32,000 nt of DNA from Myxococcaceae bacterium (GCA_025459425.1 JALOQF010000014.1:1-32000), one strand, 5' to 3'. Shown: positions 1 through 23,768, counted from the stretch's first letter. Translations and numbers: made by a program. Notes: generated from the letters alone by a model not told the origin.

Positions 1-1827
<1,827 letters not shown>

Positions 1828-1840
1828 GGGGAGTCGGCCT

Positions 1841-2896
1841 TCAGCGAATGGTGAGGGGCTCGAGGCCCGAGAGGCGCTGCGCTACCACCGGCGCGGGAAT
1901 CGCGTGCGGCGCGTGGGCTTTGACGGCGTTGGCGATGGCGGCGATGTGCGCGGGCGTCGAGCCGCAGCAGCCGCCGACGAGGTTGAGCCAGCCCTGCTTC
2001 GCGAAGTCGCCCAGCACGCGCGCCATGTCGTCGGGCGTCTCGTCGTAGCCGCCGAAGGCGTTGGGCAGGCCGGCGTTCGGGTAGCAGCTGACGTGGCACT
2101 CGGCGAGGCCGGCGAGCTCTTCGATGTACGGGCGCATGTCGTTGCCGCCGAGCGCGCAGTTGATGCCCACCGAGAAGGGCTTCGCGTGCCGAATCGACGC
2201 GTAGAACGCCGCGATGGTCTGGCCCGAGAGCGTGCGGCCCGAGCGGTCGGTGATGGTGACCGACACCATGACGGGCACGCGCCGGCCGAGCGCCTCGAAG
2301 ACGCCCTCGATGGCGAAGAGGGCCGCCTTGGCGTTGAGCGTGTCGAAGATGGTCTCGACGAGGAGCGCGTCGACGCCGCCCTCCATCAGCGCGTGCACCT
2401 GCTCGGTGTATGCGGTGACGACCTGCTCCCACGTGACGGCGCGGAAGTCGGGGCGGTTCACGTCGGGAGACAGCGACAGCGTGCGGTTGAGCGGGCCGAT
2501 GGCGCCGGCGACGAAGCACCGGCGCCCCGGCGTCTTCGCCTCGGCCTTCTCGACGGCCCGCTTCGCGCACGCCACGGCGGCGAGGTTCAGCTCGCGCACG
2601 AAGGGCTCGAGCTTGAAGTCGGCCTGGGCGACGGTGGTGGCGCCGAAGGTGTTCGTCTCGATGACGTCGGCGCCGGCCTCGAGGTACTGGGCGTGAATCG
2701 ACTCGATGATGTCGGGCCGGGTGAGGCACAGCACGTCTGAGTTGTTCTTCAGCTCGTGCGGGTGGTCCTTGAAGCGCTCGCCGCGGTAGTCGGCCTCGGT
2801 GGGCTTGTAGGTCTGCACCATCGAGCCCATGGCGCCGTCGAGAATGACGATGCGCTCCTGGAAGAGTCGTTCGAAGGCCTGGCTGCGGGTCGTCAT
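1841..2896 (-). CDS. metH: Methionine synthase MetH, N-terminal polypeptide (homocysteine S-methyltransferase domain only)
   Basis: Track ORF 1841..3007, trimmed to the internal ATG at 2896 ([28 protein letters not shown]...) with GGAG about 9 nt upstream. Hcy-domain hallmarks are present: [18 protein letters not shown] and VGGCCGSTP (Zn-ligand Cys). It ends ...SGLEPLTIR*, which is the interdomain linker position of single-chain MetH. Confidence 0.9.
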
Positions 2897-2918
2897 GGAA
2901 GGCTCCGGTGAAGTGACG

Positions 2919-3848
2919 TCAGGCGCGCGCCTCTTTGGCGGGCCGGCGGGCGGCGCGGGCGGGCCGCGACGCGGTGAGGAGGAACGCGCGGAACGGCGAG
3001 CCGCCATCGCGCGGCGTGGGCGTGAGCTGCAGGTCGACGAAGCCGGCCGCGCGCAGGGCGCTCTCGAGGCCGTGGGGCTCGAAGCCGAGGTGCTGGTGGC
3101 CCAGGCGCGACTTCACCCAGGCCTCCTGGTGCGGCATCAGCTCGAGCACGACGAGCTTGCCGCCAGGGACCAGCACCCGCGCGGCTTCGTGCAGCACCGC
3201 CGCCGGGTCGGCCACGTGGTGGAGGCTCTGCGAGATGACGACGAGGTGCTGGCGGCCCACCGAGCGCGGCAGGGCCTCGAGGTCGCCCTCGACGAAGGTG
3301 ACGTTGTCGCGCTTGTCACGCGCCAGCCGGCCGCGCGCCTGCTCGAGCGCCGCGCCGCTCTTGTCGACGGCGGTGACGTGCCGGGCCCAGCGCGCGAGCT
3401 CGGCCGTCAGCACGCCGGAGCCACACCCGAAGTCGGCCACGTCGAGCTTCGGGAGCAGCGACGACAGCGCCGACGCCCAGAGCAGCCAGGACTGCCCGGG
3501 CTCGAGCAGCTTCTCGTTGAGGGTGTGCCGGTCTTCACGACGGCGGAGCAGCTCGGTCAGGCGCGCCTGGTCGCCGTGGGGGTCGTCGCCCTCCCTCGCC
3601 AGCCGGATGAGCGGCCAGCGTGGGTCCGACGCGTCGACGGCGAGGGAGTAATACGTGTAGCCGCCCTGCCGCTCCTCGCGGATGAGCTCGAGCCCCTTGA
3701 GCTTCGCCAGGTGGTGCGACACCGACGACTGGGCCACGCCGATGAGCGAGACGACTTCCGACACGTTCAGCGTGGCCGAGGCCACCAGCCGCAAGATGCG
3801 CAGCCGCGTCGGGTCTCCCAGGGCGCTGAAGGTCTCGGACAGCTCCAT
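2919..3848 (-). CDS. ArsR-family wHTH fused to a SAM-dependent methyltransferase-fold domain (SahR-like regulator of methionine/SAM-cycle genes)
   Basis: This is the 3' 309 codons of track ORF 2919..5003, starting at MELSETFSALGDPTRLRILRLVASATLNVSEVVSLIGVAQSSVSHHLAKLKGLELI (ArsR/SmtB HTH). That is followed by VADFGCGSGVLTAELA...VLVPGGKLVV (class I MTase motifs I and post-I). It lies 22 nt upstream of the metH N-terminal ORF on the same strand. Confidence 0.8.
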   Translation of the reverse strand: MELSETFSALGDPTRLRILRLVASATLNVSEVVSLIGVAQSSVSHHLAKLKGLELIREERQGGYTYYSLAVDASDPRWPLIRLAREGDDPHGDQARLTELLRRREDRHTLNEKLLEPGQSWLLWASALSSLLPKLDVADFGCGSGVLTAELARWARHVTAVDKSGAALEQARGRLARDKRDNVTFVEGDLEALPRSVGRQHLVVISQSLHHVADPAAVLHEAARVLVPGGKLVVLELMPHQEAWVKSRLGHQHLGFEPHGLESALRAAGFVDLQLTPTPRDGGSPFRAFLLTASRPARAARRPAKEARA

Positions 3849-7098: not shown

Positions 7099-10000
7099 AT
7101 GCGCAAGGTCGTCCTCGTCGCTGGAGCGCTCCTCACCGCCTGCCTGGACGTCACCGTGCCGCAGCCGCCACCTCCGGCGGGCCCCGGTTCGCTGCAGGGC
7201 ACCGTGGTGTATTCCGTGCCCGGCCGCACCGGCCTTCGGCCCGCGGGCGGCGCCACCGTCACCCTCGTCGGCACGTCGCGGCGAGCCACCGCCGACGCCG
7301 AGACCGGCCGCTTCGAGCTCGACGGGCTGACGCGCAGCACGGGCCAGGTCCTCTTCACCTTCGACGCCACCGGTGATGGCGTGATCGACCGCCAGAGGGT
7401 GCTCGAGCTCTCGTCCGTCGGCGCGGGCCGCGGGAAGACCATCGCGCTGGGCGACGTGGCGCTGGGTCGCAATGGCTCCGTCGTCGGCACCGTGCTGCGC
7501 GGTGACGTCGTCGGGCCGAGTGGGCATGCAGGCACCGCCGTCTTCGTCGCCGGCCTGCCCATCGCCACCGCCACCAGCGACCGCGGCGAGTTCGTGCTCG
7601 AGAACCTGCCCGAGGGCCGGGTGACGGTGTCGTTCTTCCGCGCGGGCTACCTCGCCGAGACGGCCGACCTCGAGGTGCGCTCCGGCCAGGAGTCACAGGC
7701 CGCCACCGTTCGGCTCCAGGTCGACCCGGCGGCCTCGTCGGCCGCGCCCGCGCGCCTCACCGGCACCCTGCGCTTCGAAGACGACTCGCCCGTCGCCAAC
7801 GCGCGCCTCCTGCTCGTCTCGGGGGCGCTGCGCCTCACCAGCACCACCGGGCCCACCGGCGCCTTCACCGTCGAGGCGAGCCAGGCCGCGCTCTTCCAGG
7901 TGGGCATCGAGGCCGAGGGCGCGCAGAGCCTCGTCCTCTCCAACGTGCTGCTGTTGCCCGGCACCACCGACCTCGGCGTCCTGGCCCTCACGCGCGGCAC
8001 CTCGACGCCCATCGACTTCGACGGCGGCTTCAACCCGGGCACGCCCGACGCGGGCCCCTCCGTCATCGCCGTCATCGACCCGCCGGTGCTCGACGTCGTG
8101 CCGGGCGGCACCGGCACCCTCTCGAGCGCGCGCTCGACCGGCACCCGGCCCCTCACCTCGCGCTGGCGCACCCGGCAGGACGGCGGCCTCGAGCTGCTGT
8201 TCGCCACCCCCATCACCACCGGCGCGCTCAGCACCTTCACCGCGCCCGACGCCTCGGGCCTGTTCTCCGTCGGCCTCGAGGTCATCGACGTGAGCGGCAC
8301 GGTGAGCGCCGAGGCGAGCGCGCTGGTGCGCGTGGGCCGCGCCCCGACGGTCTCGCTGACGCCATCGACCATGCAGGTGCAGTCGGGCGACCAGGTGACG
8401 CTCACTGCCACCCCGCAGTCCGAAGACGGCCGGCCCATCAGCGAGTTCCGCTGGAGCCAGGTGACGGGCCCCGCGGTGCCCGCCGTGGCGACTGAAACCG
8501 GCGCGACGCTCACCTTCACCGTGCCGCCCGTGCCGGGCCTCATCCCCATGACGTTCGAGGTTCGGGCGCGCACCGACCTCGGCTTCGAGAGCGCTCCAGC
8601 CGGCGTGACGCTCCAGGTGCAGCCGCGGGGCGCGCCGCGGCTCACCATCACCACGATGTCCACCCCCGTGACGTGGACGGGAGGCCCCCGCCCCATCGTG
8701 CGGCTCAGCGCGACGCTCTCGGGCGCGGCACCGCAAGACACCGTCAGCTTCGCGTGGTCGCCCGCGGTGCAGTTCGCCTGCCCGCTCTCCGACGGCGGCT
8801 CCGACGCCACCTGCCCCCTCGCCGTGGTGCTCTCGGACGTGACAGGCCCGACGACGGAGTTCTTCGCGCCCGCGGTGTCGGGCGACCAGTCGGTGCGCTT
8901 CACGGCGACGGCCCGGGGCTCCGATGGTGGTGTGCTGGCGACCGAGGCCGTCGACGTGACGGTGCTCGACCGCCGGCCGCCGAGCTGTCGCGCCAACCTG
9001 ACGCGGCTCGCGCTGCGCGTGCAGTGCGACGAGGCGCTCGCGAGCGGCCCGATGCTCGACGGAGGCCCCAACACGCCACCCCACAGCGTCGAGGTCGACG
9101 GTGGCCTCGCCCTGTTTCTCTTCGAGACGTTCCCCGCCGGCCCCCTGACGCTCTCGGTGTCGGGTATCGCCGACAAGGCCAACAACCCGCCCGCCGCCCC
9201 CATCACGATTCCATCGAACGTGGGCCTCGACGTGTCCTCGGTGTTCGCCGCCGGCGGCACCTCGGTGGCGAACCCGCGGCCCACGTGGGTGTCCGGCTCC
9301 GCGTCGCAGGGCGCACCGGCCCGCCGCTTCGTCATCGGCCGCGCCACCACGGCGACCAACCGCCAGGTGTGGCTGTGGGACCCCGAGAACACGTGCAGCC
9401 TGCTGCCCTGCCAGCAGTTCACCCTCAGCATTCCGCTCCCCGGCGCCGAGCCCGGCCCGTCCCTCGGCGCCGTGGTGGCGGGCTCACGCACGTACCTCAT
9501 CACCTCGCGCACCAACCCCAACGCGCTCGTCGAGTTCAGCAACGGCACGGCGCGCGAGTTCCTGCCCACGACGATGCCGCCGCTGGTGGGCCTGTCGGCC
9601 ATCGGCGACGACCTGTGGGTGCTGTCGACCGACGGCGGCCCGTTGACCCGTCAGCGCCTCATCGGCACTGCGTCTGACGGCGGCACCCTCGCGCCACCGG
9701 AGCTGGTGAACGACGAGTTCAACGGTGCCCTCGCCGACGTCTTCGCGAGCCCCGACGGGCAACAGGTGGCCGCGGGCCTCGTGGACGACTTCTCAGTCTT
9801 CCGCTTCCGGCAGTTCGACGGCGCCTCGCAGCAGTGGGGCGTCGCGGGAGAGCTCGCCCTGCCCAGCGCTGCGACCGTCGTGGGAACCCGCGGCGCCTTC
9901 CTCGGGCCTTCACCTGGCCGGCCGGTGTGGGTGACGGCCGAGTCGGGCGGCGCCCTGCGCGCGTCGTTCGAGCTGCCCGGCACCCCGCCCATGGCGACCT

Positions 10001-10293
10001 CGACGACGCTGAGCACGAGCCAGGCGAAGGGCGACCTCGACGTGGTGCGCTTCGGCAACGTGGGGCTGGTCGCCTGGGTCACGGTGGGCGGTGAGCTGCG
10101 CCTCACGCTGGTGTCGACGGACCCGACGGCGCCGCCCATCGACCTGGTGACGCCGGCCAGCAGCACGCGGTGGAACGACGCGACGCTGGCCGCCACGCCG
10201 CGGCTGTCGGTGGTGAATGGAGAGGTGCTGCTCACCTGGGCGGCAGGCTCTGGCGCCGGCCCGTGGACGATGCAGGCCCGGGTGATTCGCTGA
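7099..10293 (+). CDS. Large surface/secreted lipoprotein with three CarboxypepD_reg-like domains and PKD/Ig-like repeats
   Basis: Track ORF of 1064 aa. It starts MRKVVLVAGALLTAC|L (lipobox LTAC). There are three G-x-V...G-A-x-V...T-D-x-x-G-x-F modules (for example GSLQGTVVYSVPG...TGRFELDGL and GSVVGTVLRGD...DRGEFVLENLPEG). These are followed by repeated ...W.QV.GP.V....G..L.FT.P... PKD-like units. I do not recognise the C-terminal roughly 350 aa. Confidence 0.85.
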   Translation: MRKVVLVAGALLTACLDVTVPQPPPPAGPGSLQGTVVYSVPGRTGLRPAGGATVTLVGTSRRATADAETGRFELDGLTRSTGQVLFTFDATGDGVIDRQRVLELSSVGAGRGKTIALGDVALGRNGSVVGTVLRGDVVGPSGHAGTAVFVAGLPIATATSDRGEFVLENLPEGRVTVSFFRAGYLAETADLEVRSGQESQAATVRLQVDPAASSAAPARLTGTLRFEDDSPVANARLLLVSGALRLTSTTGPTGAFTVEASQAALFQVGIEAEGAQSLVLSNVLLLPGTTDLGVLALTRGTSTPIDFDGGFNPGTPDAGPSVIAVIDPPVLDVVPGGTGTLSSARSTGTRPLTSRWRTRQDGGLELLFATPITTGALSTFTAPDASGLFSVGLEVIDVSGTVSAEASALVRVGRAPTVSLTPSTMQVQSGDQVTLTATPQSEDGRPISEFRWSQVTGPAVPAVATETGATLTFTVPPVPGLIPMTFEVRARTDLGFESAPAGVTLQVQPRGAPRLTITTMSTPVTWTGGPRPIVRLSATLSGAAPQDTVSFAWSPAVQFACPLSDGGSDATCPLAVVLSDVTGPTTEFFAPAVSGDQSVRFTATARGSDGGVLATEAVDVTVLDRRPPSCRANLTRLALRVQCDEALASGPMLDGGPNTPPHSVEVDGGLALFLFETFPAGPLTLSVSGIADKANNPPAAPITIPSNVGLDVSSVFAAGGTSVANPRPTWVSGSASQGAPARRFVIGRATTATNRQVWLWDPENTCSLLPCQQFTLSIPLPGAEPGPSLGAVVAGSRTYLITSRTNPNALVEFSNGTAREFLPTTMPPLVGLSAIGDDLWVLSTDGGPLTRQRLIGTASDGGTLAPPELVNDEFNGALADVFASPDGQQVAAGLVDDFSVFRFRQFDGASQQWGVAGELALPSAATVVGTRGAFLGPSPGRPVWVTAESGGALRASFELPGTPPMATSTTLSTSQAKGDLDVVRFGNVGLVAWVTVGGELRLTLVSTDPTAPPIDLVTPASSTRWNDATLAATPRLSVVNGEVLLTWAAGSGAGPWTMQARVIR

Positions 10294-10295
10294 CG

Positions 10296-10697
10296 TCAGC
10301 GCATGCCGAACAGCACCAGCGCCACGATGGTGGTGAGGAAGTACGGCACCATCGCCGCCGCCGAGGCGTAGTCCTTCGCGAGCCGCTGCCCGAGGAAGAG
10401 GCCCACGATGCTCGACGCGCTCAAGAAGGCGCCTGCCATCGCCAGCGCCGTGGTGCCGAGCAGCACCGTCGCCAGCACGCCCGCCGCCGAGGTGATGCCC
10501 GCGAGCACCTCGAGCACCGTGATGACGAAGAACAAGAAGCCCGCCACCGGCCGCATCGGCGTCTTCTCGAGGTAGCCGGTGATGTAGGCCTTGTTGCCGC
10601 TCCAATCGAAGACCTTGTCGAGGCCCGACTGCAGGAAGAGGACGGCCAGGAACGCGCCCACGAAGCCCTGCGCCAGGAAGAGGCCGGTGTCTCGCAT
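10296..10697 (-). CDS. DoxX-family membrane protein
   Basis: This is the 3' 133 codons of track ORF 10296..11354, from the ATG at 10697: MRDTGLFLAQGFVGAFLAVLFLQSGLDKVFDW... It has four hydrophobic helices, typical in size and pattern for DoxX. The upstream part of the track ORF is a shadow of the hydrolase gene. Confidence 0.8.
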   Translation of the reverse strand: MRDTGLFLAQGFVGAFLAVLFLQSGLDKVFDWSGNKAYITGYLEKTPMRPVAGFLFFVITVLEVLAGITSAAGVLATVLLGTTALAMAGAFLSASSIVGLFLGQRLAKDYASAAAMVPYFLTTIVALVLFGMR

Positions 10698-10761
10698 GGG
10701 CGGGGCACATAGCGCGTCTTGCTTGAAAAGCACGCGGGGCCCGGCAAGGAGCGAGGGGCCC

Positions 10762-11586
10762 ATGCAGCTCCACGTCGACCTCGTCACCGCGCCGAACGCG
10801 ACGCCCTCGCGGGCGTTCCTCTTTCTCCACGGCATTCTGGGCCAGGGCACCAACCTGCGAACGCTGGCGCGGCGCTTCGTCGAGGCGCGGCCGACGTACC
10901 AGGCGGTGCTCGTCGACCTGCGCGCCCACGGCGCCTCCCAGGGCGTCGAAGGCGAAGACTCGGTGGTGACGGCGGCGGGCGACGTGGCGCAGACGGCGAA
11001 GGCCCTGCCGCTGCCGGTGACGGGCGCCTGCGCGCACTCGTTCGGTGGAAAGGTGACGATGCTGCTGGCCGAGCGCCTCGACGGGCTCGAGCACCTCGTC
11101 ATCCTCGACTCGGGGCCGGGCGCACGCACCGACTTCCGCGGCTCGGAGCTGACGATGAAGGTGCTGTCGACGCTCGAAGACGCACCGGCGCGGTTTCCTT
11201 CACGCGAGGCCTTCGTCGCGCACCTCGGCACCGCCGGCATCGAGCGCGGCATCGCGACGTGGCTGGGCATGAACCTCGACCGCGGCGACGACGGGTTCCG
11301 CTTCACCCTGTCGCTCGCCCGCATCCGCGCGCTGCTGGCCTCGTACTTCGCCACCGACTGCTGGCCGGTGCTCGAGCGGCTGGCCCTCGACGCAGGCCCG
11401 GCGTTTCACCTCGTCATCGGCGCGCGCTCGAAGGTGTTCGACGCCCACGAGCGGGAGCGGGCCGAGGCGCTGGCGGCCCGCTCAGGTGGGCGCTGCACCG
11501 TCGACGTGTTGCCGACGGGCCACTGGGTGCACGTCGACGACTTCGAGGGCACCGTGCGGGCGCTGCTGTCACGTGTTCCGGCGTGA
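10762..11586 (+). CDS. Alpha/beta hydrolase
   Basis: ATG at 10762, preceded by AAGGAG (10746-10751). The protein reads MQLHVDLV...RAFLFLHGILGQGTNL (oxyanion HG motif), AHSFGG (nucleophile elbow GxSxG-like) and C-terminal LPTGHWVHVD (catalytic His region). Confidence 0.85.
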   Translation: MQLHVDLVTAPNATPSRAFLFLHGILGQGTNLRTLARRFVEARPTYQAVLVDLRAHGASQGVEGEDSVVTAAGDVAQTAKALPLPVTGACAHSFGGKVTMLLAERLDGLEHLVILDSGPGARTDFRGSELTMKVLSTLEDAPARFPSREAFVAHLGTAGIERGIATWLGMNLDRGDDGFRFTLSLARIRALLASYFATDCWPVLERLALDAGPAFHLVIGARSKVFDAHERERAEALAARSGGRCTVDVLPTGHWVHVDDFEGTVRALLSRVPA

Positions 11587-11649
11587 GCCTGGCGCTGGGG
11601 GTGCGGAGTCAGGGACACGCCGCGACCGGCGTGAGCGAGCCGGGACTCG

Positions 11650-12096
11650 TCACCGCTCCCATGTCAGCAGCGACAACGGGTACATCGGCCCGTCGAGGGC
11701 GAGGTCGACGAACTGCTTCACGTCGCGGCCGGCGAGCGCCACCGTCGGCACCTGCTCGCGGGTGAACCACTGCGCGGCGAGCGAGTGCTCGTCGGCCTGC
11801 AGCTTGAGCGGCCGGTCGTCGGCGGGCCGGGCCACCACGCAGATGCGCAGCCGGGCCTCACCGCCGTCGACGAGCGTGTGCTGCACGCGCAAGAGGCCCT
11901 CGAGCTCGACGGGAACGCCCACCTCGGCGTGGGCCATGCGGCGCGCGGCGGCCAGCAGCTCTTCGCCGGGTTCGACGCGGCCACCCGGCAGCGACCAGGC
12001 CACGCCGTCCTTCGGGTCGCGCACCAGCGCCACCTTGCGCCCGGACTTCACGACGACGAGGGCGAACGTCCACGTGGGCGTCGGGGTGCGGGCCAT
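11650..12096 (-). CDS. Nudix-fold protein with a degenerate Nudix box
   Basis: Track ORF of 148 aa. The box region is GRVEPGEELLAAARRMAHAEVGV (11914-11982). It matches the spacing of GX5EX7REUXEEXGU, but REUXEE reads RMAHAE. Confidence 0.8.
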   Translation of the reverse strand: MARTPTPTWTFALVVVKSGRKVALVRDPKDGVAWSLPGGRVEPGEELLAAARRMAHAEVGVPVELEGLLRVQHTLVDGGEARLRICVVARPADDRPLKLQADEHSLAAQWFTREQVPTVALAGRDVKQFVDLALDGPMYPLSLLTWER

Positions 12097-12283
12097 GCCG
12101 CCACACTGCGCCGCACAGGCCCGTCATTCAACCGCCGAAGGGGGCGCGCCCGCTGCTTCGTGGTGACAGCGTTCGCCGCGCGCCAGCCGTCGGGCGCGAA
12201 GACGGACCAGCGGGTGCCACCGCAGGGCTCGGGGGGCTCCATCGTCGCCGCTGCCCGTTCCCCCTGTGGTAACGAGGCGCCCC

Positions 12284-12721
12284 ATGGACGAACTCACGCA
12301 ACGCACCAACGCGCTCAAGTCGATGCCGCTGCTCGCCGACCTTCCCCACGGCGAGCTCGAGAAGCTCGCGAAGCGGCTGTCGGTGGAGCAGCACCGCACC
12401 GGCTCCGTCATCATCAAGGAAGGCTCGAGCGGCGCGGCGGCGTACTTCATCGTCTCGGGCAGCTGCGAGGTGCGGCGCGAGGGCAAGCGCGGCAGCAAGC
12501 GCGTCAACGTCATCAAGCGCGGCGACTGCTTCGGCGAGCTGTCCATCATCAACCCGGCCCCGCGCTCGGCCACCGTGGTGGCGCTCGAGACCGTCGACCT
12601 GCTGGTGCTGAACGAGGCCGACTTCCGCGACGCGCTGCGGTCGAACCGCTCGATGGCGCTGCAGCTCGTGCGCGCGCTCGCCAAGCGGCTCCAGGCACGG
12701 GAAGACGAGTTCACGGGATGA
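12284..12721 (+). CDS. Stand-alone cyclic-nucleotide-binding (CAP effector-type) domain protein
   Basis: Track ORF 12266..12721 starts at a GTG. I prefer the ATG at 12284, with GAGG 7 nt upstream. Motifs: LEKLAKRLSVEQHRTGSVIIKEG...YFIVSGSCEV...GDCFGELSIINPAPRSATVVA (phosphate-binding cassette FGE...PRSAT). There is no HTH or other output domain. Confidence 0.85.
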   Translation: MDELTQRTNALKSMPLLADLPHGELEKLAKRLSVEQHRTGSVIIKEGSSGAAAYFIVSGSCEVRREGKRGSKRVNVIKRGDCFGELSIINPAPRSATVVALETVDLLVLNEADFRDALRSNRSMALQLVRALAKRLQAREDEFTG

Positions 12722-13737
12722 TTTCGACCTCGACCACGCCTTCCTGCACCATCCGCCAGCTCCTCGAGGACACGCAGTACGACCTCAAGCTCGAGCTGGT
12801 GGCGGGTGGCCCCGGCCTCGACCGGCGCATCTCGAGCTCGCGCGTGCAGAAGCCGGGCCTCGCGCTCACCGGCTTCACCGAGCACCTGCACCCCGAGCGG
12901 CTGCAGATCTTCGGCAACACCGAGATCTCGTACCTGCGCACCCTCTCGCCGGAGCAGCAGGTGGCGGTGCTGAAGAAGGTGTTCGAGTCGAACCTGGCGG
13001 CGGTGGTGGTGACGAAGGGCCTCGAGGTGCCGGCGCCACTCCACGAGGGCTGCGACCGCACGAACCTCACGCTCATGCGCACGCCGCTCATCTCGTCGGC
13101 GTTCATCTCGCAGGTGCAGTCGTTCCTCGAAGAGGCGCTGATGGCGTCGGGCAGCCTGCACGGCGTGCTCGTCGACGTCTTCGGCGTCGGCGTGCTGCTG
13201 CTGGGCAAGTCGGGCATCGGCAAGAGCGAGATTGCGCTGGACCTCGTGATGCGCGGGCACCGCCTGGTGGCCGACGACATCGTGAACCTCGTGCGCAAGC
13301 AGGCCGACGTGTACGGGCACGGCAACGAGATGATTCAGCACCACATGGAGATTCGGGGGCTGGGCATTCTCAACATCAAGGACCTCTTCGGCGTGGCGGC
13401 GGTGCGCGACCGGAAGAAGATCGAGCTCGTCATCGAGCTGGTCGAGTGGACGCCGACGGCCGAGTACGACCGCCTGGGCCTCGAGCAGGAGTCGATGAAC
13501 ATTCTGGGCGCCGAGCTGCCGCACGCGGTGGTGCCGGTGCGGCCGGGGCGCAACATGACGACCATCGTCGAGGTGGCGGCGCGCAACCACCTGCTCAAGC
13601 TGCGCGGCCACAACTCGGCGCAGGAGTTCGCGGAGCGCCTGTCACAGGCCATCTCGCGCCAGGGCACACCGTCGTCGGGCCGCGCGCAGGTGCCCGCGCC
13701 GAGGCCGACGCCGCAGTACGAAGAAGACGTCGAGTAG
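12718..13737 (+). CDS. hprK: HPr kinase/phosphorylase
   Basis: This is the 3' 339 codons of track ORF 11785..13737, from the ATG at 12718. That ATG overlaps the cNMP-binding gene's stop (ATGA). Motifs: GVGVLLLGKSGIGKSEIALDLV (P-loop) and HHMEIRGLGILNIKDLFG (HprK signature). Confidence 0.92.
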   Translation: MISTSTTPSCTIRQLLEDTQYDLKLELVAGGPGLDRRISSSRVQKPGLALTGFTEHLHPERLQIFGNTEISYLRTLSPEQQVAVLKKVFESNLAAVVVTKGLEVPAPLHEGCDRTNLTLMRTPLISSAFISQVQSFLEEALMASGSLHGVLVDVFGVGVLLLGKSGIGKSEIALDLVMRGHRLVADDIVNLVRKQADVYGHGNEMIQHHMEIRGLGILNIKDLFGVAAVRDRKKIELVIELVEWTPTAEYDRLGLEQESMNILGAELPHAVVPVRPGRNMTTIVEVAARNHLLKLRGHNSAQEFAERLSQAISRQGTPSSGRAQVPAPRPTPQYEEDVE

Positions 13738-13740
13738 CGC

Positions 13741-14159
13741 TCAGGGCCCACGCGGGGCGCGCGCCCACCACGACAGCGCCGCCTCGAGGTTCTCCCGCGC
13801 GCGCGCGCTCAGCGCCTCACCCAGCCCGAACTGCCACCCCCGAATCGCGAGCACCTTCGCGGGCGGCGCCTTCTCGCCGGTGAGCTGCTCGAACACGTGC
13901 AGCAGCGCGCCGGGCGAGAGGTGGTGCGTCGTGAGGCTCGCCGCGCCGTCGGGCATCACCTCGCGCACCTCGAAGGGCTCGGCCGCGTCCACCGCCGCGT
14001 CGACGAAGAGCACCTGGTCGCGGCCGACGAGGTCGAGCGCGTGCTCCGGCTGCAGCTGGTAGTCGACGACGAGCTCGACGTCGTCTCGCCGCGCGGCCTC
14101 TCCGACGAACGTCCGCCCCCCCGCGTGCCGACGCCCACCACCGCTCCGCGCGCGTCCAC
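13741..14159 (-). CDS. hoxW: Hydrogenase maturation endopeptidase (HoxW/HybD family), reading frame interrupted at a G7 run (possible pseudogene, indel error or frameshift site)
   Basis: The protease-like sequence RTFVGEAARRDDVELVVDYQLQPEHALDLVGRDQVLFVDAAV...SLTTHHLSPGALLHVFEQL...VLAIRGWQFGLGEALS is in the frame ending at 13741. The expected N-terminal strand (GAVVGVGT, compare hhhGhGN) is encoded only in the hoxH frame. The two frames meet at the C7/G7 run 14116-14122. The protease frame has no ATG/GTG/TTG start that would give a proper N-terminus. The coordinates assume the GTG at 14159 plus a -1 shift (419 nt). Confidence 0.55.
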
Positions 14160-15542
14160 CACCGTCACCTCGAGCGGCATGCGCCCCATCGCGTGCGTCG
14201 CGCACGACAGGCACGGGTCGAACGCGCGCACCGCCACCTCGACGTGGTTGAGCAGGCCCTCGGTCACCTCGTGGCCGTCCAGGTACCGGCGCGCCACCGA
14301 GCGGATGGCCTCGTTCATCGCCTGGTTGTTGTTGGTGGTGCTGACGATGAGGTTGCAGCGGGAGACGAGGTCGTCGTCGCCCACCTCGTAGTGGTGAATC
14401 AACGTGCCACGCGGCGCCTCGATGATGCCGATGCCTTCCCGCTGCCGGGCGCCCGTCGAGACGAGGTCGCCGTGCAGCAGGCCATCGTCGTGGAGCAGCC
14501 GCTCGAGGTCTTCGGCGGCGTGGAGGAGCTCGATCATCCGCGCCCAGTGGAAGGCGAGCGGCGCGTGGGTGATGCCCGGGTACGCCGCGCGGAAGTCCCG
14601 GCGGGCCGCCTCGGCGAGCGGCGTCGGCAGGCGGTCGCACAGCTGCACGCGCGCCAGCGGGCCCACCTTGTACCAACCGACGTCCGGCCCCAGCCGCTCG
14701 AGGTAGGGGAACTTCATGTACGACCAGGGCCGCACGTCTTCACGAATCAGCGCCTGGTAGTCGGCCGCCTCGACGCCATCGAAGAGCACCCGCCCCTCGG
14801 CGTCGACGCCGCGCAGGCCACCGTCGTAGAGGTCGAGCGCGCCGTCGGAGGCCACCAGCCCGAGCAGGTTCGAGGGCACCGCGCCGAAGCCCCGATGCCG
14901 GGCCTCGTTCACCTCGGTGAGGCGCCGCGCGAGCGCGACGGCCTCGAGCGCCCAGGCCTTCACCTGCGGCACCTGCGAGAGGAACGTGTCGCGCGCCTCG
15001 AGCGCCAGGTGCTTGTTCACGCCCCCCGGCACCGCGCCCGTGCCGTGAATGCGCTTGCCGTAGACGGCCTCGAGCACCTGCTGACCGAACTTGCGCAGCA
15101 GCACCCCCATCTTCGCGATGTCGGGGTGCTGCGCCACCAGCCCGATGAGGTTGCGCCGCGAGACGTCGGAGTCGAAGCCGAACAGCAGGTCGGGCGAGGC
15201 GAGGTGGAAGAAGTGCAGCGCGTGCGACTGGAGCATCTGCCCCGAGTGCATGAGCCTCCGGAGCTTCACCGCCGACGGTGGAGGCACGCCGCCCACCACC
15301 TGGTCGAGCGCCTTGGCCGCGCACAGGTTGTGCGACACCGGGCAGATGCCGCACAGCCGCTGCACCACCACCGGCACTTCCCAGTACGGGCGCCCGACGA
15401 TGAAGGCCTCGAAGCCGCGGAACTCGACGATGTGCAGCCGCGCCTCGTGCACCTTCCCCGCCTCGTCGAGGAGCAACGTCACCTTCCCGTGGCCTTCGAC
15501 GCGCGAGAGCGGCTCGATGGCGATGCGGCGCAGGTCAGTCAT
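13956..15542 (-). CDS. hoxH: [NiFe] hydrogenase large subunit, NAD(P)-linked bidirectional type (HoxH, group 3d-like)
   Basis: Track ORF of 528 aa. It contains LSRVEGHGKV, the N-terminal Ni-Fe ligand motif RLCGICPVSH and the C-terminal DPCLSCATH (His codon at 14193-14195). Homology-like sequence ends around ...MPLEVTVVDARGAVVG. The remaining tail, out to 13956, is Ser/Thr/Arg-rich and is the out-of-frame reading of hoxW. Confidence 0.92.
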   Translation of the reverse strand: MTDLRRIAIEPLSRVEGHGKVTLLLDEAGKVHEARLHIVEFRGFEAFIVGRPYWEVPVVVQRLCGICPVSHNLCAAKALDQVVGGVPPPSAVKLRRLMHSGQMLQSHALHFFHLASPDLLFGFDSDVSRRNLIGLVAQHPDIAKMGVLLRKFGQQVLEAVYGKRIHGTGAVPGGVNKHLALEARDTFLSQVPQVKAWALEAVALARRLTEVNEARHRGFGAVPSNLLGLVASDGALDLYDGGLRGVDAEGRVLFDGVEAADYQALIREDVRPWSYMKFPYLERLGPDVGWYKVGPLARVQLCDRLPTPLAEAARRDFRAAYPGITHAPLAFHWARMIELLHAAEDLERLLHDDGLLHGDLVSTGARQREGIGIIEAPRGTLIHHYEVGDDDLVSRCNLIVSTTNNNQAMNEAIRSVARRYLDGHEVTEGLLNHVEVAVRAFDPCLSCATHAMGRMPLEVTVVDARGAVVGVGTRGGGRSSERPRGETTSSSSSTTSCSRSTRSTSSAATRCSSSTRRWTRPSPSRCAR

Positions 15543-16074
15543 AGCGGAGCGCTCCTCTCGGCAACGTCGGCTCGCGCCCGTCGAGCAGCGCGGTGAGGAA
15601 GGCCCAGAACGCGTCGGCCGGCGGTGGGCAGCCCGGCAGGAAGTAGTCGACGCGAACGAACTCGTGCACCGGCCGAACCTTGTCGAAGAGCCGCGGCAGC
15701 TCGACGTCGTCAGGCAGCGCGCGCCGGCCGAGGCCCGGCTCGGCCATGTAGACGGTGTGCAAGAGCTCGCTCACGTCGAACTGGTTGCGCTGGGCGGGGA
15801 GGCCTCCATTGATGGCGCAGGCGCCCACCGACACCAGCAGGCGGCACTGGTCGCGGAACTCCTTCAGCACGTGCAGGTTGTCTTCGTTGCACACGCCACC
15901 CTCGATGAGCCCTACGTCGCAGGCGCTGGCGTGCTTCACGTCGGTGAGCGGAGACCGGTCGAACGTCACGCGCTCGAGCAGCGGGAGGATGCGCTCGTCG
16001 AGGTCGAGGAACGACATGTGGCAGCCGAAGCAGCCGGCGAGCGACGTGGTGGCCAGCTTCACCTTGCCCGTCAT
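15535..16074 (-). CDS. hoxY: [NiFe] hydrogenase small subunit (HoxY)
   Basis: From the ATG at 16074 (179 aa): MTGKVKLATTSLAGCFGCHMSFLDLDE...GGVCNEDN...VGACAINGG...DYFLPGCPP (proximal 4Fe-4S Cys pattern of short group-3 small subunits). It has an ATGA overlap with hoxU and an 8-nt overlap (ATGACTGA) with the hoxH start. Confidence 0.9.
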   Translation of the reverse strand: MTGKVKLATTSLAGCFGCHMSFLDLDERILPLLERVTFDRSPLTDVKHASACDVGLIEGGVCNEDNLHVLKEFRDQCRLLVSVGACAINGGLPAQRNQFDVSELLHTVYMAEPGLGRRALPDDVELPRLFDKVRPVHEFVRVDYFLPGCPPPADAFWAFLTALLDGREPTLPRGALRYD

Positions 16075-16781
16075 GGCTCCTCCTTGCCTTCGACCTGCGT
16101 GCGCGGCGGCGCGACGTCGTGGGGCCGCTGGCCGATGGGCGTCGAGAAGCCGACGCGCTTCTTCAAGATGACGCCGACCGGGCACACGCGCGCCGCGACG
16201 TCGTCGACGGACATGCCGGTGTCCGCCAGCCGGCCCGACTCGGCGTTGACGATGAGGTGCTTGTGCAGCCCACGCCCCGAGAGCGCGAAGACGTGCTTGT
16301 GGTCGACGTCCGCCGAAGCGCGCACGCACAGCTCGCAGAGGATGCAGCGGTTGAAGTCGAGGAGCAGGTCGGGGTGCGACGCATCGACCGGGCGCTGCGG
16401 CGACTCGTGCGCGAAGCCTGCCGAGGTGACGCCGAGGTCGGTGCCGAGGGTCTGCAGCGTGCAGCCGCCGGACTTCTCGCACCCGGGGCAGAAGTGGTTG
16501 CCCTCGACGAGGAGCATCTGCACGAGCGCCTGCCGGTCGGCGTGGAGCGACGGCGTCTGGCTCTCGACGGTGAGGCCGGCCGCAGCCCGGGTGGTGCACG
16601 CCGCCATCGGGCGCCCGTTCACCAGCACCGTGCAGACGCGACACGAGCCGTGAGCCGGGAAGTCCGGGTGCGCGCAGAGGAAGGGAATGTACGTGTGCGC
16701 AGCGCGCGCGGCCTCGATGAGCGTCTGGCCCTCGTCGAACTCGACCGGCACACCGTCGAGGGTGAAGCGCGGGCGGCTCAT
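16071..16781 (-). CDS. hoxU: Diaphorase Fe-S subunit HoxU (NuoG N-terminal-like)
   Basis: Track ORF of 236 aa. Motifs: CAHPDFPAHGSCRVCTV...AAC (2Fe-2S), HFCPGCEKSGGC (His-ligated 4Fe-4S), CILCELCVRAS and RVCPVG (4Fe-4S). Confidence 0.9.
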   Translation of the reverse strand: MSRPRFTLDGVPVEFDEGQTLIEAARAAHTYIPFLCAHPDFPAHGSCRVCTVLVNGRPMAACTTRAAAGLTVESQTPSLHADRQALVQMLLVEGNHFCPGCEKSGGCTLQTLGTDLGVTSAGFAHESPQRPVDASHPDLLLDFNRCILCELCVRASADVDHKHVFALSGRGLHKHLIVNAESGRLADTGMSVDDVAARVCPVGVILKKRVGFSTPIGQRPHDVAPPRTQVEGKEEP

Positions 16782-18520
16782 CGGCGGGCTCCTTCGTGGC
16801 GGCCGTTCATGAGGGCCGCCTCGACGTCGAAGGACGGCTCGAACGAGGCCGACAGTCGCCGCCGCACGTCTTCGGGGAACTTGCGCAGCCAGTGCCGGTA
16901 CGCGTTGGGCGCCATCACGCCGAGGCCGCAGTGCGACGTGTCTCGGAGCAGGTGGGCGAGGGTCTCGAGCTCGGTCAGCTCGACGCTCGAGCCACGGCCC
17001 TGCTGGAGCTTCGAGAGGCTGCGTGCCGCGACGTGCGTCCCCACCCGGCAGGGCGTGCAGAAGCCGCAGCTCTCGTGCGCGAAGAAGCGCGCGAAGTTGA
17101 GCGCCACCTCGAGCAGGTCACGCCGGGGCCCGAAGACGGCGATGGCTCCGGCGCAGGCGAGGTCTTCGAAGCACAGCCGGCGGTCGAACTCGAACGGGGC
17201 CACCAGCTCACCGGAAGGGCCGCTCACCTGCACGGCCCGGGCGTCGACCCCGCCTGCGAGCGCCAGCACGTCTCGGAGCGTCACGCCCCACGGCACCTCG
17301 TAGACGCCGGGGCGCTCGACGTCGCCAGCGACCGACAGGAGCTTCGAGCCGGTGGACTTCTCGGTGCCGAGCGCGCTCCACGCCTCGACGCCGTTCGCGA
17401 AGACGACGGCCACGTCGGCGTACGTCTCGACGTTGTTCACGATGGTGGGCCGACCGAGGTAGCCATTCGTCACCGGAAAGGGAGGCCGGTGCCGCGGGAC
17501 GCCGCGCTTGCCCTCGAGGGACTCGATGAGCGCGGTCTCTTCACCGCAGACGTACGCCCCCGCGCCCAGGTGCAGGTCGATGTCGAAGTCGAAGCCCCGC
17601 TCGCCGAGAATGCCCTGGCCGAGCAGGCCCTCACGACGACGCCGCTCGAGCACCCCGCGCAGGTGCCCTTCGAGGAACGTGTACTCACCCCGGAGGTAGA
17701 TGAAGCCCGTCGTCGCCTGCGTACAGTGCGCGGCGACGGTCATGCCCTCGACGACGAGGTCGGCGCAGGTGGCGAGGAGCACCCGGTCCTTGAAGGTGCC
17801 CGGTTCGCCCTCGTCGGCGTTGCACACCACGACGCTGTCGCCGGGCGCGGTGCGGCAGGTCTCCCACTTGGTGACGACGGGAAAGCCCGCGCCGCCGCGC
17901 CCACGGAGCCGCGCGGCCTCGAGCGTCTTCGTCCGTGCGTCGTGGCCCTGCTCGAGCACGCGGCGCAGGGCGGCCCCGGGCGCGAGCCGAGACGAGAGGA
18001 CCGGACCTCGCTGCCGAATGCCTTCGTCGACGTGCAGCAGCGCCTCCGGCCAGCGGTCGACGGGCGTCCCTGCTTCGATGCAGGCCACCACGGCGTCGAG
18101 TCGTTCCCCGACGACGCGTGAAATCGCGCGCCCGTTCACCAGAATCGCGGGCGGCTGGTCGCACAGCCCGGTGCACGACGTGCGGTCGAGCGAGACGACG
18201 CCATCGGTGCGAACGTGGCCGGGCTCGACGTGGAGCCGCTCGGAGAACGCCCGGAGCGTGTCGTGACTGCCCGCGAAGACGTCGGTGATGTTGTCCGAGA
18301 CGAGCACACGGAAGCGGCCGACGGGCTCGAGGTGCAAGAAGGCGTAGAACCCGGCCACGCCCTCGACATGCGCGCGTGGCAGACCGAGCCCGTTGGCCAC
18401 CTCGGTGAGCACACGCGGTGGGAGCCACTGGCCGCTGGCCGCCTGAACGTCTCTCAGAAGCTGGAGGAGCCGCGTGGGGTCGCGCTGGTGCGCGTCGAGG
18501 AGCTCGGACACCGTGCGCAT
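16778..18520 (-). CDS. hoxF: Diaphorase NAD(P)H/FMN subunit HoxF with a fused NuoE/HoxE-like N-terminal domain
   Basis: Track ORF 16778..18583 begins at a TTG. I prefer the ATG at 18520 (MRTVSELLDAHQRD...). Motifs: GRGGAGFPVVTKWE (FMN), CNADEGEPGTFKDR (NADH) and ESCGFCTPCRVG (4Fe-4S). The N-terminal thioredoxin-like domain has SCTGLCDQPPAILVNG. It has an ATGA overlap with hoxU. Confidence 0.9.
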   Translation of the reverse strand: MRTVSELLDAHQRDPTRLLQLLRDVQAASGQWLPPRVLTEVANGLGLPRAHVEGVAGFYAFLHLEPVGRFRVLVSDNITDVFAGSHDTLRAFSERLHVEPGHVRTDGVVSLDRTSCTGLCDQPPAILVNGRAISRVVGERLDAVVACIEAGTPVDRWPEALLHVDEGIRQRGPVLSSRLAPGAALRRVLEQGHDARTKTLEAARLRGRGGAGFPVVTKWETCRTAPGDSVVVCNADEGEPGTFKDRVLLATCADLVVEGMTVAAHCTQATTGFIYLRGEYTFLEGHLRGVLERRRREGLLGQGILGERGFDFDIDLHLGAGAYVCGEETALIESLEGKRGVPRHRPPFPVTNGYLGRPTIVNNVETYADVAVVFANGVEAWSALGTEKSTGSKLLSVAGDVERPGVYEVPWGVTLRDVLALAGGVDARAVQVSGPSGELVAPFEFDRRLCFEDLACAGAIAVFGPRRDLLEVALNFARFFAHESCGFCTPCRVGTHVAARSLSKLQQGRGSSVELTELETLAHLLRDTSHCGLGVMAPNAYRHWLRKFPEDVRRRLSASFEPSFDVEAALMNGRHEGARR

Positions 18521-18684
18521 GAGTCGGTTGGATGCACGCGCCGCGCCGCCATGTACGAGCCCACGCCGGTCGGCCCGACGCAAGGCTTGCGTCAGGGCGC
18601 TTCACCAGACCGGGACGGCGCAAGAAGCGGGCGCGGGAGACGCACGGCGCCAAACGCGGTGGCTGCTGGCACGATGCGGCCGCG

Positions 18685-19830
18685 ATGGCCACCCCCGAAG
18701 ACGAACAGGTTCTGGACGAGCTGGCGACGTTGCTCGCGACGAATGGGCTGGGCGACTTCGTCTTCGGGCCCCTGCTGACGCCAGACCCGACGTTCTTCCC
18801 TGACGCGTGGCGCGGCGATCTGGCGAGCGCCGAGGCGATGCTCCGGCGCCTGCTGGCGTACGCGCGGCTCGGCTCGCTCCCCTTCGTGCTCTGGCGCTTC
18901 GATGATCCGCGCTGGCTCGAGGGCGAGCACGAGCGGGAAACGACACATCACGACGCCGCGGCCTTCTTCGACGGGGCGAACGAGTTCGGCACGTACCTCT
19001 TCGGCGTGCGGGCGGATCAATGGGACGACCCGATGTCGCTCGCGGGCGTGCTGGCGCACGAGACGGCGCATGCCTGGCGCTTCCGCCGTGACATCACCTC
19101 GAGCCACGAGGCCACCGAAGAACGGCTCACCGACCTCACCTCGGTCTTCCTCGGCTTCGGGGTGCTCGCGGCCGCGGTGGCGTATCGACATGCGCCGGAG
19201 CTGCAACGTCGAGGCTACCTGCCGCTCCACGTGGTGGCGTTCGCGCTGGGCGTGCAGTTGGTGGTTCGAGGAGACGAAGCCGAGTGGGCGCTCATCGACG
19301 ACGCGCTCGGAGCGGACGCCAGAGCCATCGTGCGAGACGTGCGGCGGCAGTGGGCTCCCAGGCGGGCCGAGCTGCTCTCACGATTGGGCCTGCCTGCCGA
19401 GACGACGTGGAAGCGCCCGGCGCCTCCGACGCTGCCGAAGCCCTGGAGCCCGCGCGTCGCGTCGGGTCGCGACGTGGTGTTCCGCGTGGCCGAGGCGCCG
19501 TGGTGGCCGGTCGCGACGGTGGCGGCGATCGTCTCGGGCGCGGTCGCGATGGCGAACCAGTCGTGGTGGCCGCTGCTGGGACTGGGGCTGACACCGGTCG
19601 CGGTCCTGCTGCGGAAAGACGTGTGCTCTGGGTGCAGGGCGCCGCTCGCCTCGTCGGCCAGTCGCTGCGCGGGGTGTGGTGGTGAGGTGAAGGGGCGCGT
19701 CCGCCGGCGCGCAGAGCACACCGCGGCCGAGCGCGCGTTCCTCGAGGCCGCAGAAGACACGCGTGCTGCCGAGGCGCGCGACGTGGTGAAGGACTTGCTC
19801 TCGAGGGCGCGGGACGACGACTCGAAGTAG
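18685..19830 (+). CDS. Hypothetical HExxH (zincin-like) protein with TM segments and a C-terminal zinc ribbon
   Basis: This is track ORF 18532..19830 trimmed to the ATG at 18685 (MATPEDEQVLDEL...). It contains GVLAHETAHAWRF (HExxH), hydrophobic segments (LTSVFLGFGVLAAAVA, WWPVATVAAIVSGAVAMA, WWPLLGLGLTPVAVLL) and then CSGC-x12-CAGC. It is divergent from hoxF. Confidence 0.65.
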   Translation: MATPEDEQVLDELATLLATNGLGDFVFGPLLTPDPTFFPDAWRGDLASAEAMLRRLLAYARLGSLPFVLWRFDDPRWLEGEHERETTHHDAAAFFDGANEFGTYLFGVRADQWDDPMSLAGVLAHETAHAWRFRRDITSSHEATEERLTDLTSVFLGFGVLAAAVAYRHAPELQRRGYLPLHVVAFALGVQLVVRGDEAEWALIDDALGADARAIVRDVRRQWAPRRAELLSRLGLPAETTWKRPAPPTLPKPWSPRVASGRDVVFRVAEAPWWPVATVAAIVSGAVAMANQSWWPLLGLGLTPVAVLLRKDVCSGCRAPLASSASRCAGCGGEVKGRVRRRAEHTAAERAFLEAAEDTRAAEARDVVKDLLSRARDDDSK

Positions 19831-19842
19831 GCACTCGCCTGC

Positions 19843-20262
19843 ATGAACCCGGTTCCCTGCAGTCGCTGCGGCACCTTCATTCGCGAACGGCGCGAACTGC
19901 TCTACTCCGATGCAGGCGACCCGATGTGTCCGGAGTGCCGGCGGGCGATCGACGAGCCGCGCCGAAGGCAGCTGCGGAGCCGCACGCACCCGCTCGTCTG
20001 GCGTTCGCTCGGCGCGGCGTTCTGGTCGGTGGCCGGACTTCCCTTCTCGATCATCGTCCTTGGGGGCGCCGTGTGGGCGAGCATGCCGGCGCTCTCGACC
20101 GGCCTCGTCATCTTGAGCCGACTCAACGGCGACGCGGAGCTGCGGGCCGAAGTGGGCCCTCGACTTCGGCTCGTCCGAACGAGCGCCTGGGTGAGCGTCG
20201 TCCTGGGCGCGGTTGGTGGGTTCGCGACGCTCGCCAGGCTGGCGGTCTTGTTGGCCGGCTGA
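19843..20262 (+). CDS. Small membrane protein with an N-terminal zinc ribbon
   Basis: Track ORF of 139 aa. It has CSRC-x18-CPEC followed by three hydrophobic helices. It starts 12 nt after the previous gene's stop. Confidence 0.6.
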   Translation: MNPVPCSRCGTFIRERRELLYSDAGDPMCPECRRAIDEPRRRQLRSRTHPLVWRSLGAAFWSVAGLPFSIIVLGGAVWASMPALSTGLVILSRLNGDAELRAEVGPRLRLVRTSAWVSVVLGAVGGFATLARLAVLLAG

Positions 20263-20327
20263 ACGCGAGCGCTCCCGCAGGCCGAGGTGGCGCACCAGCG
20301 ACTGGCGACTCCGGGTAGGCTTTTTAC

Positions 20328-22325: not shown

Positions 22326-22382
22326 GTCACCGGTCCGTCACGCTGGGCGCTGATCACCGCCGGGGGCAGGTAAGCAGGCCGC

Positions 22383-23768
22383 ATGTCGACGCTCGACGCG
22401 ACGCTCACGCCAGACGTGCCTGCTGCCGACCCGTCGGCCCGACGGCGCATGCTGCCCGTGCTCTTCCTCGGCGTCTTCATGGCGGCCCTCGACGCCGCGG
22501 TGGTGGCGCCCGCGGTGCCCGCCCTCAAGGCAGCCTTCGGCCTCGACAACCGGCAGGTCGGCCTCGTCACCATCGTCTTCAGCCTCTGCTCGCTGAGCGC
22601 CACCGCGTTGATGGCCAACCTGTCGGACCGCTTCGGCCGGCGCACCATCTACCTGCTCGACATCGCCGGCTTCGCGCTCGGCTCGCTCGTCATCGCGCAG
22701 GCGAGCAGCTTCGGCGCGGTGCTGGTCGGTCGCGCCATTCAAGGCCTCTGCGCCGGTGGCATCACGCCCACCGCGAGCGCCGTCGTCGGTGACGCCTTCC
22801 CTCCAAAGGAGCGCGGCAAGGTGCTCGGCCTCATCGGCGCCACCTTCGGCATGGCCTTCCTCGTCGGGCCCCTGCTGGCGTCGGCGGTGCTGCTGGTGGC
22901 GAGCTGGCCGTGGATCTTCCTGCTCAACCTGCCGGTGGCCGCGCTCGTCTTCACCCTGGGCCTCAAGGCGCTGCCGGGGAAGACCGTGCGCTCCGGCCAG
23001 GCGCCCTTCGATGCGGCTGGCGTCGTGGTGCTGGCGACGACGCTCGCGTGCCTCATGCTGGGCATCAACCGCGCGCTCGACCTGCAGCTCGGGCGCACCC
23101 TGTGGCCGTACCTCCTGGGCGTCGCCGCGCTGGGCGTGCCGCTGCTCGTCCTCGTCGAGCGCCGGGCCGCGCAGCCCATCGTGCCGATGCGCCTCTTCAC
23201 CCGGCTCGCGCTGCAGCGCACGTGGCTGCTCTGCGTGGGCGCCGGGTTCGGCATGGGCAGCATCATCTTCATCTCGTCCATCGCCGTCGCGGCGTTCGGC
23301 GTCACGACGCAGAAGGCCGGCCTGCTCCTGATTCCCCTCGTGCTGGCGTCGGCCGGCGGGTCGATGGGCTTCGGGCGCGTGCAGCACCGGGTCGGCGCGC
23401 GCGTCGTGCTGCTCTCGGGCTTCGGAGCGCTCTTCCTCGGCGCGAGCCTGCTCGGCGGCCTGACGCCGACGTGGGTGAGCTTCTTCGTCTCGACGATGCT
23501 GGTGGGGCTCGGCGTGGGCATCGTGGTCGGCGGCACGCTGCGCACGATGGTGCTCGACGAGGTCGACGCGGCCGAGCGGAGCGCGGCGCAGGCGCTGGTG
23601 AACATCTTCATCGCCATCGGCAACCTGCTGGTGGTGGCGACGCTGAGCGTGGTGGCCGACGGCAGCGGTGGCGGCGCGGCGGGCCTGACGCGCGCGTACC
23701 TCGTCGCCGCAGCGGTGATGGCGGTGATGCTGGTGCTCTCGTCGACCATCCGTCGGCGGGCGGCGTGA
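22383..23768 (+). CDS. MFS transporter (drug:H+ antiporter-like)
   Basis: Track ORF of 461 aa with about 12-14 hydrophobic helices. The MFS motif-A-like sequence LSDRFGRRTIYL follows TM2, and GRAIQGLCAGGITP is present. Confidence 0.9.
   Translation: MSTLDATLTPDVPAADPSARRRMLPVLFLGVFMAALDAAVVAPAVPALKAAFGLDNRQVGLVTIVFSLCSLSATALMANLSDRFGRRTIYLLDIAGFALGSLVIAQASSFGAVLVGRAIQGLCAGGITPTASAVVGDAFPPKERGKVLGLIGATFGMAFLVGPLLASAVLLVASWPWIFLLNLPVAALVFTLGLKALPGKTVRSGQAPFDAAGVVVLATTLACLMLGINRALDLQLGRTLWPYLLGVAALGVPLLVLVERRAAQPIVPMRLFTRLALQRTWLLCVGAGFGMGSIIFISSIAVAAFGVTTQKAGLLLIPLVLASAGGSMGFGRVQHRVGARVVLLSGFGALFLGASLLGGLTPTWVSFFVSTMLVGLGVGIVVGGTLRTMVLDEVDAAERSAAQALVNIFIAIGNLLVVATLSVVADGSGGGAAGLTRAYLVAAAVMAVMLVLSSTIRRRAA

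Follow-up and report, generated by a model that had tools for sequence, protein, structure and literature searches.

The locus is a canonical hoxFUYHW operon of an uncultured member of the Myxococcaceae, and the lesion it carries is an ordinary one: an allele that lost its function recently, or else an error of assembly. The hoxH and hoxW reading frames meet because the contig lacks 69 bases holding the hoxH stop codon and the first 23 codons of the maturation protease. Behind it is a deletion of the ordinary sort, whether genuine or introduced during assembly, and not a programmed frameshift or a natural fusion of an enzyme to its protease. In what follows, the window is the whole stretch of DNA that was analysed (32,000 nucleotides), and the coordinates of the features are collected in Table 1.

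Table 1. Features of the hox operon and of the hoxH/hoxW boundary, in window coordinates
Feature	Position	Strand	Description
hoxF	18520..16778	-	intact, NuoE-like N-terminal domain
hoxU	16781..16071	-	intact
hoxY	16074..15535	-	intact
hoxH proper	14112..15542	-	477 codons; [NiFe] hydrogenase large subunit, NAD-reducing, group 3d type; expected stop gone
G7 run (C7 on + strand)	14116-14122	-	Arg-Gly-Gly codons (CGG GGG GGC) of the native HoxH tail
Deletion junction	14111..14112	-	69 bp of relatives absent between the two bases; blunt
hoxH-frame read-through	13956..14111	-	51 out-of-frame codons over the hoxW remnant (RSSERPRGETTSSSSSTTSCS...), stop at 13956-13958
hoxW remnant	13741..14112	-	codons 24-146 of hydrogenase maturation protease, codon 24 Ala->Thr; stop 13741-13743

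The missing segment between hoxH and hoxW

The hoxH ORF runs from 15542 to 13956 on the minus strand and encodes 528 aa. Both nickel-binding motifs of the large subunit, RxCGxC and DPCxxCxxH, are present, in the forms QRLCGICPVSH (N-terminal region) and DPCLSCATH (C-terminal region). Family support comes from Pfam NiFeSe_Hases, with PF27537 HoxH on the orthologues, and the JGI name for the protein is NAD-reducing hydrogenase large subunit. The initial annotation had placed the His codon of DPCLSCATH at 14193-14195 and had followed the frame for 78 further codons to 13956 without a nearby stop, and the sequence bears out both statements. It had also divided these codons into 27 resembling a normal HoxH tail and a remainder that is merely the protease gene read out of frame. 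That division holds: the 27 aa after DPCLSCATH (AMGRMPLEVTVVDARGAVVGVGTRGGG) are the native tail, and the other 51 codons lie over the hoxW remnant. It had, in addition, seen a protease-type first strand in the VVGVGT of the tail, and this part does not survive comparison with the intact allele, which reads VVGVGTRGGG and then stops. P0123, a 477-aa HoxH in the same 90% cluster, is identical to the window protein over 477 aa and ends at exactly that point. HoxH tails across orthologous junctions are short and stop-ended at 26-46 aa, as against 78 aa here. Wrong frames stay open for hundreds of codons because of the high G+C content, and hence the hoxH read-through resembles a long ORF.

Alignment of the window to five related contigs (L031, L032, L033, L035 and L036) leaves a single clean gap of 69 bp with identical flanks. 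Identity to the window is 89-93% for L031 (GCA_033763395.1) and 99.3-99.5% for L032 and L033, L032 (ENA ERZ27268118) standing at 99.4%. BLAST of L032 against the window returns two gap-free blocks that abut at 14112|14111, with this as the sole indel in 12.4 kb; the missing stretch is L032 6002-6070. It consists of the hoxH stop and hoxW codons 1-23 (MKKPRVLVFGWGNPSRGDDALGP). The intact allele reads ...ACG CGG GGG GGC GGA TGA, the hoxW ATG overlapping the hoxH stop (GGATGA), and its boundaries are GCGGA|TGAAGAAG and GGCCCCG|CGTTCG. In the window, the deletion junction reads GGGGGGGCGGA|CGTTCGTCGG. Of the hoxW ATG only the A is retained, and the loss extends into codon 24. As 69 is divisible by three and hoxW is offset from hoxH by one base, the hoxH frame crosses the remnant out of frame and takes on the RSSERPRGETTSSSS... 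tail. The suggestion of an indel in the initial annotation was thus right in kind and wrong in place and size: the loss is of 69 bp and lies 4 nt downstream of the G7 run. The protease homology, said to begin exactly after that run, likewise begins 4 nt later, at the junction.

The intact arrangement is the canonical one. Twelve orthologous junctions were examined, from Myxococcaceae, Archangiaceae, Polyangiaceae, Piscinibacter, Rubrivivax, Thiohalocapsa and Zoogloea. At 11 of them, the hoxH stop shares bases with an ATG or GTG that is in frame with hoxW (ATGA or GTGA); the twelfth, that of Zoogloea, has no stop/start overlap. A separate HoxW of ~146 aa is found in the near-identical contigs and in all the orthologous Myxococcaceae and betaproteobacterial loci examined. 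The orthologous proteases are 141-155 aa long and begin M(R/K)KPRVLVFGWGNPSRGDD... or M(R/K)KPRVLVFGWGNPSRGDDALGPAFVGEAARRDDVEL.... Comparison of junctions, proposed at the outset as a way to find a fusion or a conserved heptamer, therefore turns up neither, but a separate hoxW with the usual stop/start overlap. With the canonical operons of L031 and L032, the window shares the gene order and the neighbours hprK, a cNMP-binding gene, NUDIX, abhydrolase and DoxX. It differs from them in lacking the 69 bp, and consequently in its annotation: HoxH is given 528 aa where 477 would be expected, and HoxW appears only as a hypothetical protein of 83 aa. These are the GenBank entries on the 56,961-bp contig of the Myxococcaceae MAG, a 528-aa 'Ni/Fe hydrogenase subunit alpha' (MCU0695525.1) and an 83-aa 'hypothetical protein' (MCU0695524.1). 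The practical value of the present analysis is to reannotate them as hoxH with its stop lost and hoxW truncated at the 5' end.

A hairpin was considered as the cause of a deletion or of a sequencing dropout. Inverted repeats of 8 nt (I8, I9) flank the segment. The breakpoints are not at the base of the stem, and the DNA fold of the region is not more stable than that of shuffles (z -0.46), so the hairpin idea is unsupported.

The G7 run and the question of a frameshift

The G7 run is where the initial annotation had put it, and it is the only G7 or C7 run in the whole window, where dinucleotide shuffles give an expectation of 7.4 +/- 3.7; such runs are depleted. In the intact allele, the run stands 5 nt before the normal stop, and it has the same length in four intact contigs (L032, L033, L035 and L036). 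The protease homologue had been assigned to the -1 frame relative to hoxH, with no plausible start codon of its own. This is upheld by the match of that frame to TIGR00072 and by the lack of any ATG, GTG or TTG where the homology begins, at ...FVGEAARRDDVEL.

These features led to the proposal of a HoxH-HoxW fusion that processes itself in cis, made either by programmed -1 frameshifting or by transcriptional slippage at the seven G. The heptamer in CG G GGG GGC does formally fit the X XXY YYZ pattern in the hoxH frame, and the protease remnant does lie in the -1 frame. The site has that much in common with programmed -1 sites such as those of dnaX and of the orfAB genes of IS elements. It differs from them in that the heptamer is not conserved, no stimulatory structure is found, part of the downstream domain is missing, and the same heptamer stands before a normal stop in an intact allele with two separate genes, where no frameshift is needed. 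The run is confined to this species, the orthologues reading CGAGGGAGC, GGCGGGGCGAT, AGGGACGCG and similar. Of 200 shuffles of the 86 nt downstream, 198 fold better than the native RNA (z +1.81). A YYY triplet of GGG is not known as an efficient bacterial slip site. The trans-frame product would not be a complete conserved protein either; the protease part lacks its 23 N-terminal residues, including a metal ligand. When the conceptual fusion is run on TIGR00072, it scores 46.3 bits, and the upstream residues from the HoxH frame, MGRMPLEVTVVDARGAVVGVGTRGGG, add no match, leaving VVGVGT uncovered. Among the best 120 homologues of the protease frame, which stand alone throughout at 83-201 aa, there is no HoxH-protease fusion, and those named by their source are all called 'hydrogenase maturation protease'. 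We consider a frameshift or slippage fusion improbable to the point of being negligible.

A miscounted homopolymer had been offered as another way to account for the two frames: the true run would be G8 or G6, and its correction would restore the gene pair or an in-frame fusion. Homopolymer errors are common on some sequencing platforms. Yet four independent intact contigs of the species all have seven G, and no run length brings back the stop, the start codon or the 23 codons, so we attach next to no credence to a miscount. One could also combine a real deletion with slippage at the G7 run, by the ribosome (-1) or in transcription (one G inserted), such that some HoxH is joined to truncated HoxW, VVGVGT replaces the first strand, and the result is a self-processing hydrogenase. 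This we hold to be exceedingly unlikely. More generally, a frameshift or fusion site can be mimicked when high-G+C DNA, with its open wrong frames, is joined out of frame.

Real allele or assembly artefact

The origin of the deletion was examined by comparison with JGI metagenome 3300037462. Its contig Ga0392395_0000951 is 100.000% identical to window 14112-24520 (10,409 bp), and its contig Ga0392395_0008598 is 100.000% identical to window 10218-14111 (3,894 bp). For comparison, L032 has 36 mismatches to the window over the 6.8 kb nearest the junction (2,931 + 3,894 bp). Ga0392395_0000951 traverses the intact 69 bp and ends 4 nt later (...GGCCCCGCGTT), and Ga0392395_0008598 ends at the exact base where the window resumes (CGTTCGTCGG...). 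Since both JGI contigs break at the junction, two assemblies of one population differ here: one has the 69 bp and a contig break, and the other has neither.

That an otherwise identical metagenome contig has the 69 bp makes the deletion most simply a loss-of-function variant standing beside an intact allele in the sampled population. We regard a real 69-bp deletion allele of the canonical operon as somewhat probable. For the narrower statement, that one Myxococcaceae population harbors a natural hoxW knock-out allele alongside the intact one, the chances appear about even. The end of Ga0392395_0008598 is the expected convergence node of a two-allele bubble, and a de Bruijn contig would normally need junction-bearing reads in order to cross a junction free of repeats. 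Several observations count against a real deletion. It is known from one assembly only, and the 528-aa product and the 83/90-aa remnants are confined to a single contig. The blunt junction, coinciding as it does with the contig ends of the other assembly, fits a mis-join too, and the left JGI contig stops 4 nt past the junction, unlike what a simple two-allele graph would give. The nearest strain-diagnostic SNPs are 564 nt (window 14676) and 317 nt (13794) from the junction; at that distance, the intact 69 bp on the JGI contig is not phasable to the window's strain.

Further copies were sought. Neither the 528-aa HoxH nor the 90-aa remnant, looked up exactly in the contig index, occurs on any other contig there, and a search with the HoxF of the window strain for further samples returned only the same JGI contig. 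A scan of metagenome_contigs gave 0 matches for either the deletion or the intact junction. The intact pattern of the JGI contig L035 was missed too, so the collection does not include this sample and these nulls are uninformative. It is also observed that the JGI contig ends (L035/L040 on one side and L039 on the other) overlap by CGTT only, which is predicted by neither a two-allele graph nor a random coverage gap.

The alternative is that the organism has an intact junction, and that the MAG contig lost the 69 bp by a wrong join at a poorly covered spot of 75% G+C or through chimeric reads. We think this somewhat less probable than a real deletion. The JGI contigs, which come from the same population (0 mismatches in 14.3 kb), break at this very place, the left one with the 69 bp and the right one ending where the window resumes. 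No direct repeats or microhomology were found at the two breakpoints, and the bluntness of the junction fits a wrong join; by the same token, there is no repeat or overlap on which a graph collapse or an overlap join could have acted. The left breakpoint is 73 nt within the JGI contig, not at its end. The unexceptional DNA fold of the region also speaks against an artefact. There is no N run, and there is no other indel in 12-14 kb, so the assembly is not error-prone. Finally, the deletion allele is in no other assembly, and the remnant is undecayed, which is as expected of an artefact and bears on the age of any real deletion.

This last point can be followed through the operon. The upstream part (15535..18520, minus strand) is gap-free against L032. 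Codon differences from L032 number 7 synonymous and 4 non-synonymous in hoxF, and 5 synonymous and 0 non-synonymous in hoxU and hoxY jointly; in hoxH, there are synonymous differences only. Over its 123 codons, the remnant differs from L032 by 1 synonymous and 1 non-synonymous change. With neither it nor the other hox genes otherwise damaged, the deletion is either very recent or not biological.

The protease remnant and its surroundings

The remnant belongs to HoxW, the C-terminal endopeptidase of group 3d hydrogenases (HybD/HycI family, TIGR00072). It matches the NCBIfam model TIGR00072 at positions 30-140 of 145 (E 2.7e-12), with 46.9 bits falling just under the curated cut-off of 47.45; Pfam gave no match to the protease frame. 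P0127, an intact 146-aa protease in the same 90% cluster, differs from the remnant by one residue and the junction codon, and scores 72.9 bits over positions 1-140. The remnant is like HoxW in the positions of its Asp and His ligands, in YQL and in its place downstream of hoxH. It is unlike HoxW in lacking the start codon and residues 1-23, and in its score.

What those 23 residues contained can be read from the alignment of P0127 to E. coli HycI (2I8L, 2E85), in which WGNPSRGDDALGP falls on VGNSMMGDDGAGP, FVDAAV on IVDATD and LTTHHL on MTTHNM. The family metal ligands are Glu16, Asp62 and His93 in HybD, with Asp16 and His88 in HoxW (PMC2670836). The alignment places GDD within the deleted residues, and by it the lost Asp19 is the equivalent of HycI Asp16 and HybD Glu16, one of the three metal ligands. 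The first beta-strand, the GN motif and this acidic ligand are therefore absent from the window, while the second and third ligands are kept, in FVDA (Asp) and THH (His). HoxW proteins also have a specific 'HOXBOX', H(Q/I)L, that stands for the D(G/C/F)GT of other proteases (PMC2670836); the YQL of 'DYQLQPEH' in the remnant sits at that position. The initial annotation had read GT....RT as a mutated form of the GN....D(D/E) motif. The real GN...DD motif is missing because it was deleted along with residues 1-23. Of the explanations originally on offer, a hoxW pseudogene comes closest if the deletion is real, but its premise of motif decay was mistaken, the remaining 123 codons being almost unchanged. 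Of the other two, a homopolymer error is refuted and a slippage-dependent fusion is unsupported by the evidence given above for the G7 run.

If the allele is real, the course of events might have been as follows. HoxH of the normal allele ends ...VVGVGTRGGG-TGA, and the overlapping hoxW start (GGATGA) would couple translation of the protease to it. A recent deletion would then have removed the hoxH stop and hoxW codons 1-23. Translation of hoxH would pass through the remnant out of frame, giving a C-terminal extension of 78 aa and not 27 aa. Judging from the sequence, hoxW without its start codon, first beta-strand, GN and Asp19 would yield no functional protease, and the HoxH precursor would probably stay unprocessed unless another protease elsewhere in the genome substitutes. 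Loss of HoxW is known from the Cupriavidus necator literature to abolish activity of the soluble hydrogenase. More broadly, each maturation protease acts specifically on its cognate large subunit, and activity is abolished when the protease is lost (PMC6769069). Given this specificity and the loss of the ligand, strand 1 and GN, HoxH is expected to be unprocessed and inactive if the allele is real, again barring a substitute. No second protease gene or hyp gene was found within the 32-kb window. The biological weight of this is small: an uncultured Myxococcaceae population would, at most, have recently acquired a loss-of-function allele of a hydrogenase maturation protease.

A cNMP-binding protein gene and hprK (HPr kinase), with a 4-nt overlap, occupy window 12284-13737 (+). 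They are convergent with hoxW, and only 3 nt separate the stops where they meet its 3' end. The neighborhood is conserved in L031 and L032. In L031, an additional sigma-70/SnoaL_2 gene and a gene of 84 aa lie between the cNMP-binding and NUDIX genes (7833-9243), and these are not present at the corresponding places in the window (~12100-12284) and L032 (7898-8086).

Elsewhere in the window, metH on the minus strand is apparently split (region 1841-1881) into ORFs at 3112..1841 and 1881..1, so that the contig has either a MetH naturally encoded by two genes or a second lesion. The first ORF encodes the homocysteine-binding domain, covers positions 5-354 of the methionine synthase profile and ends LEPLTIR-TGA. 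The second is in another frame, with an ATG 13 nt past that stop; it encodes the pterin-binding and B12 domains, covers positions 348-952 and leaves the window.
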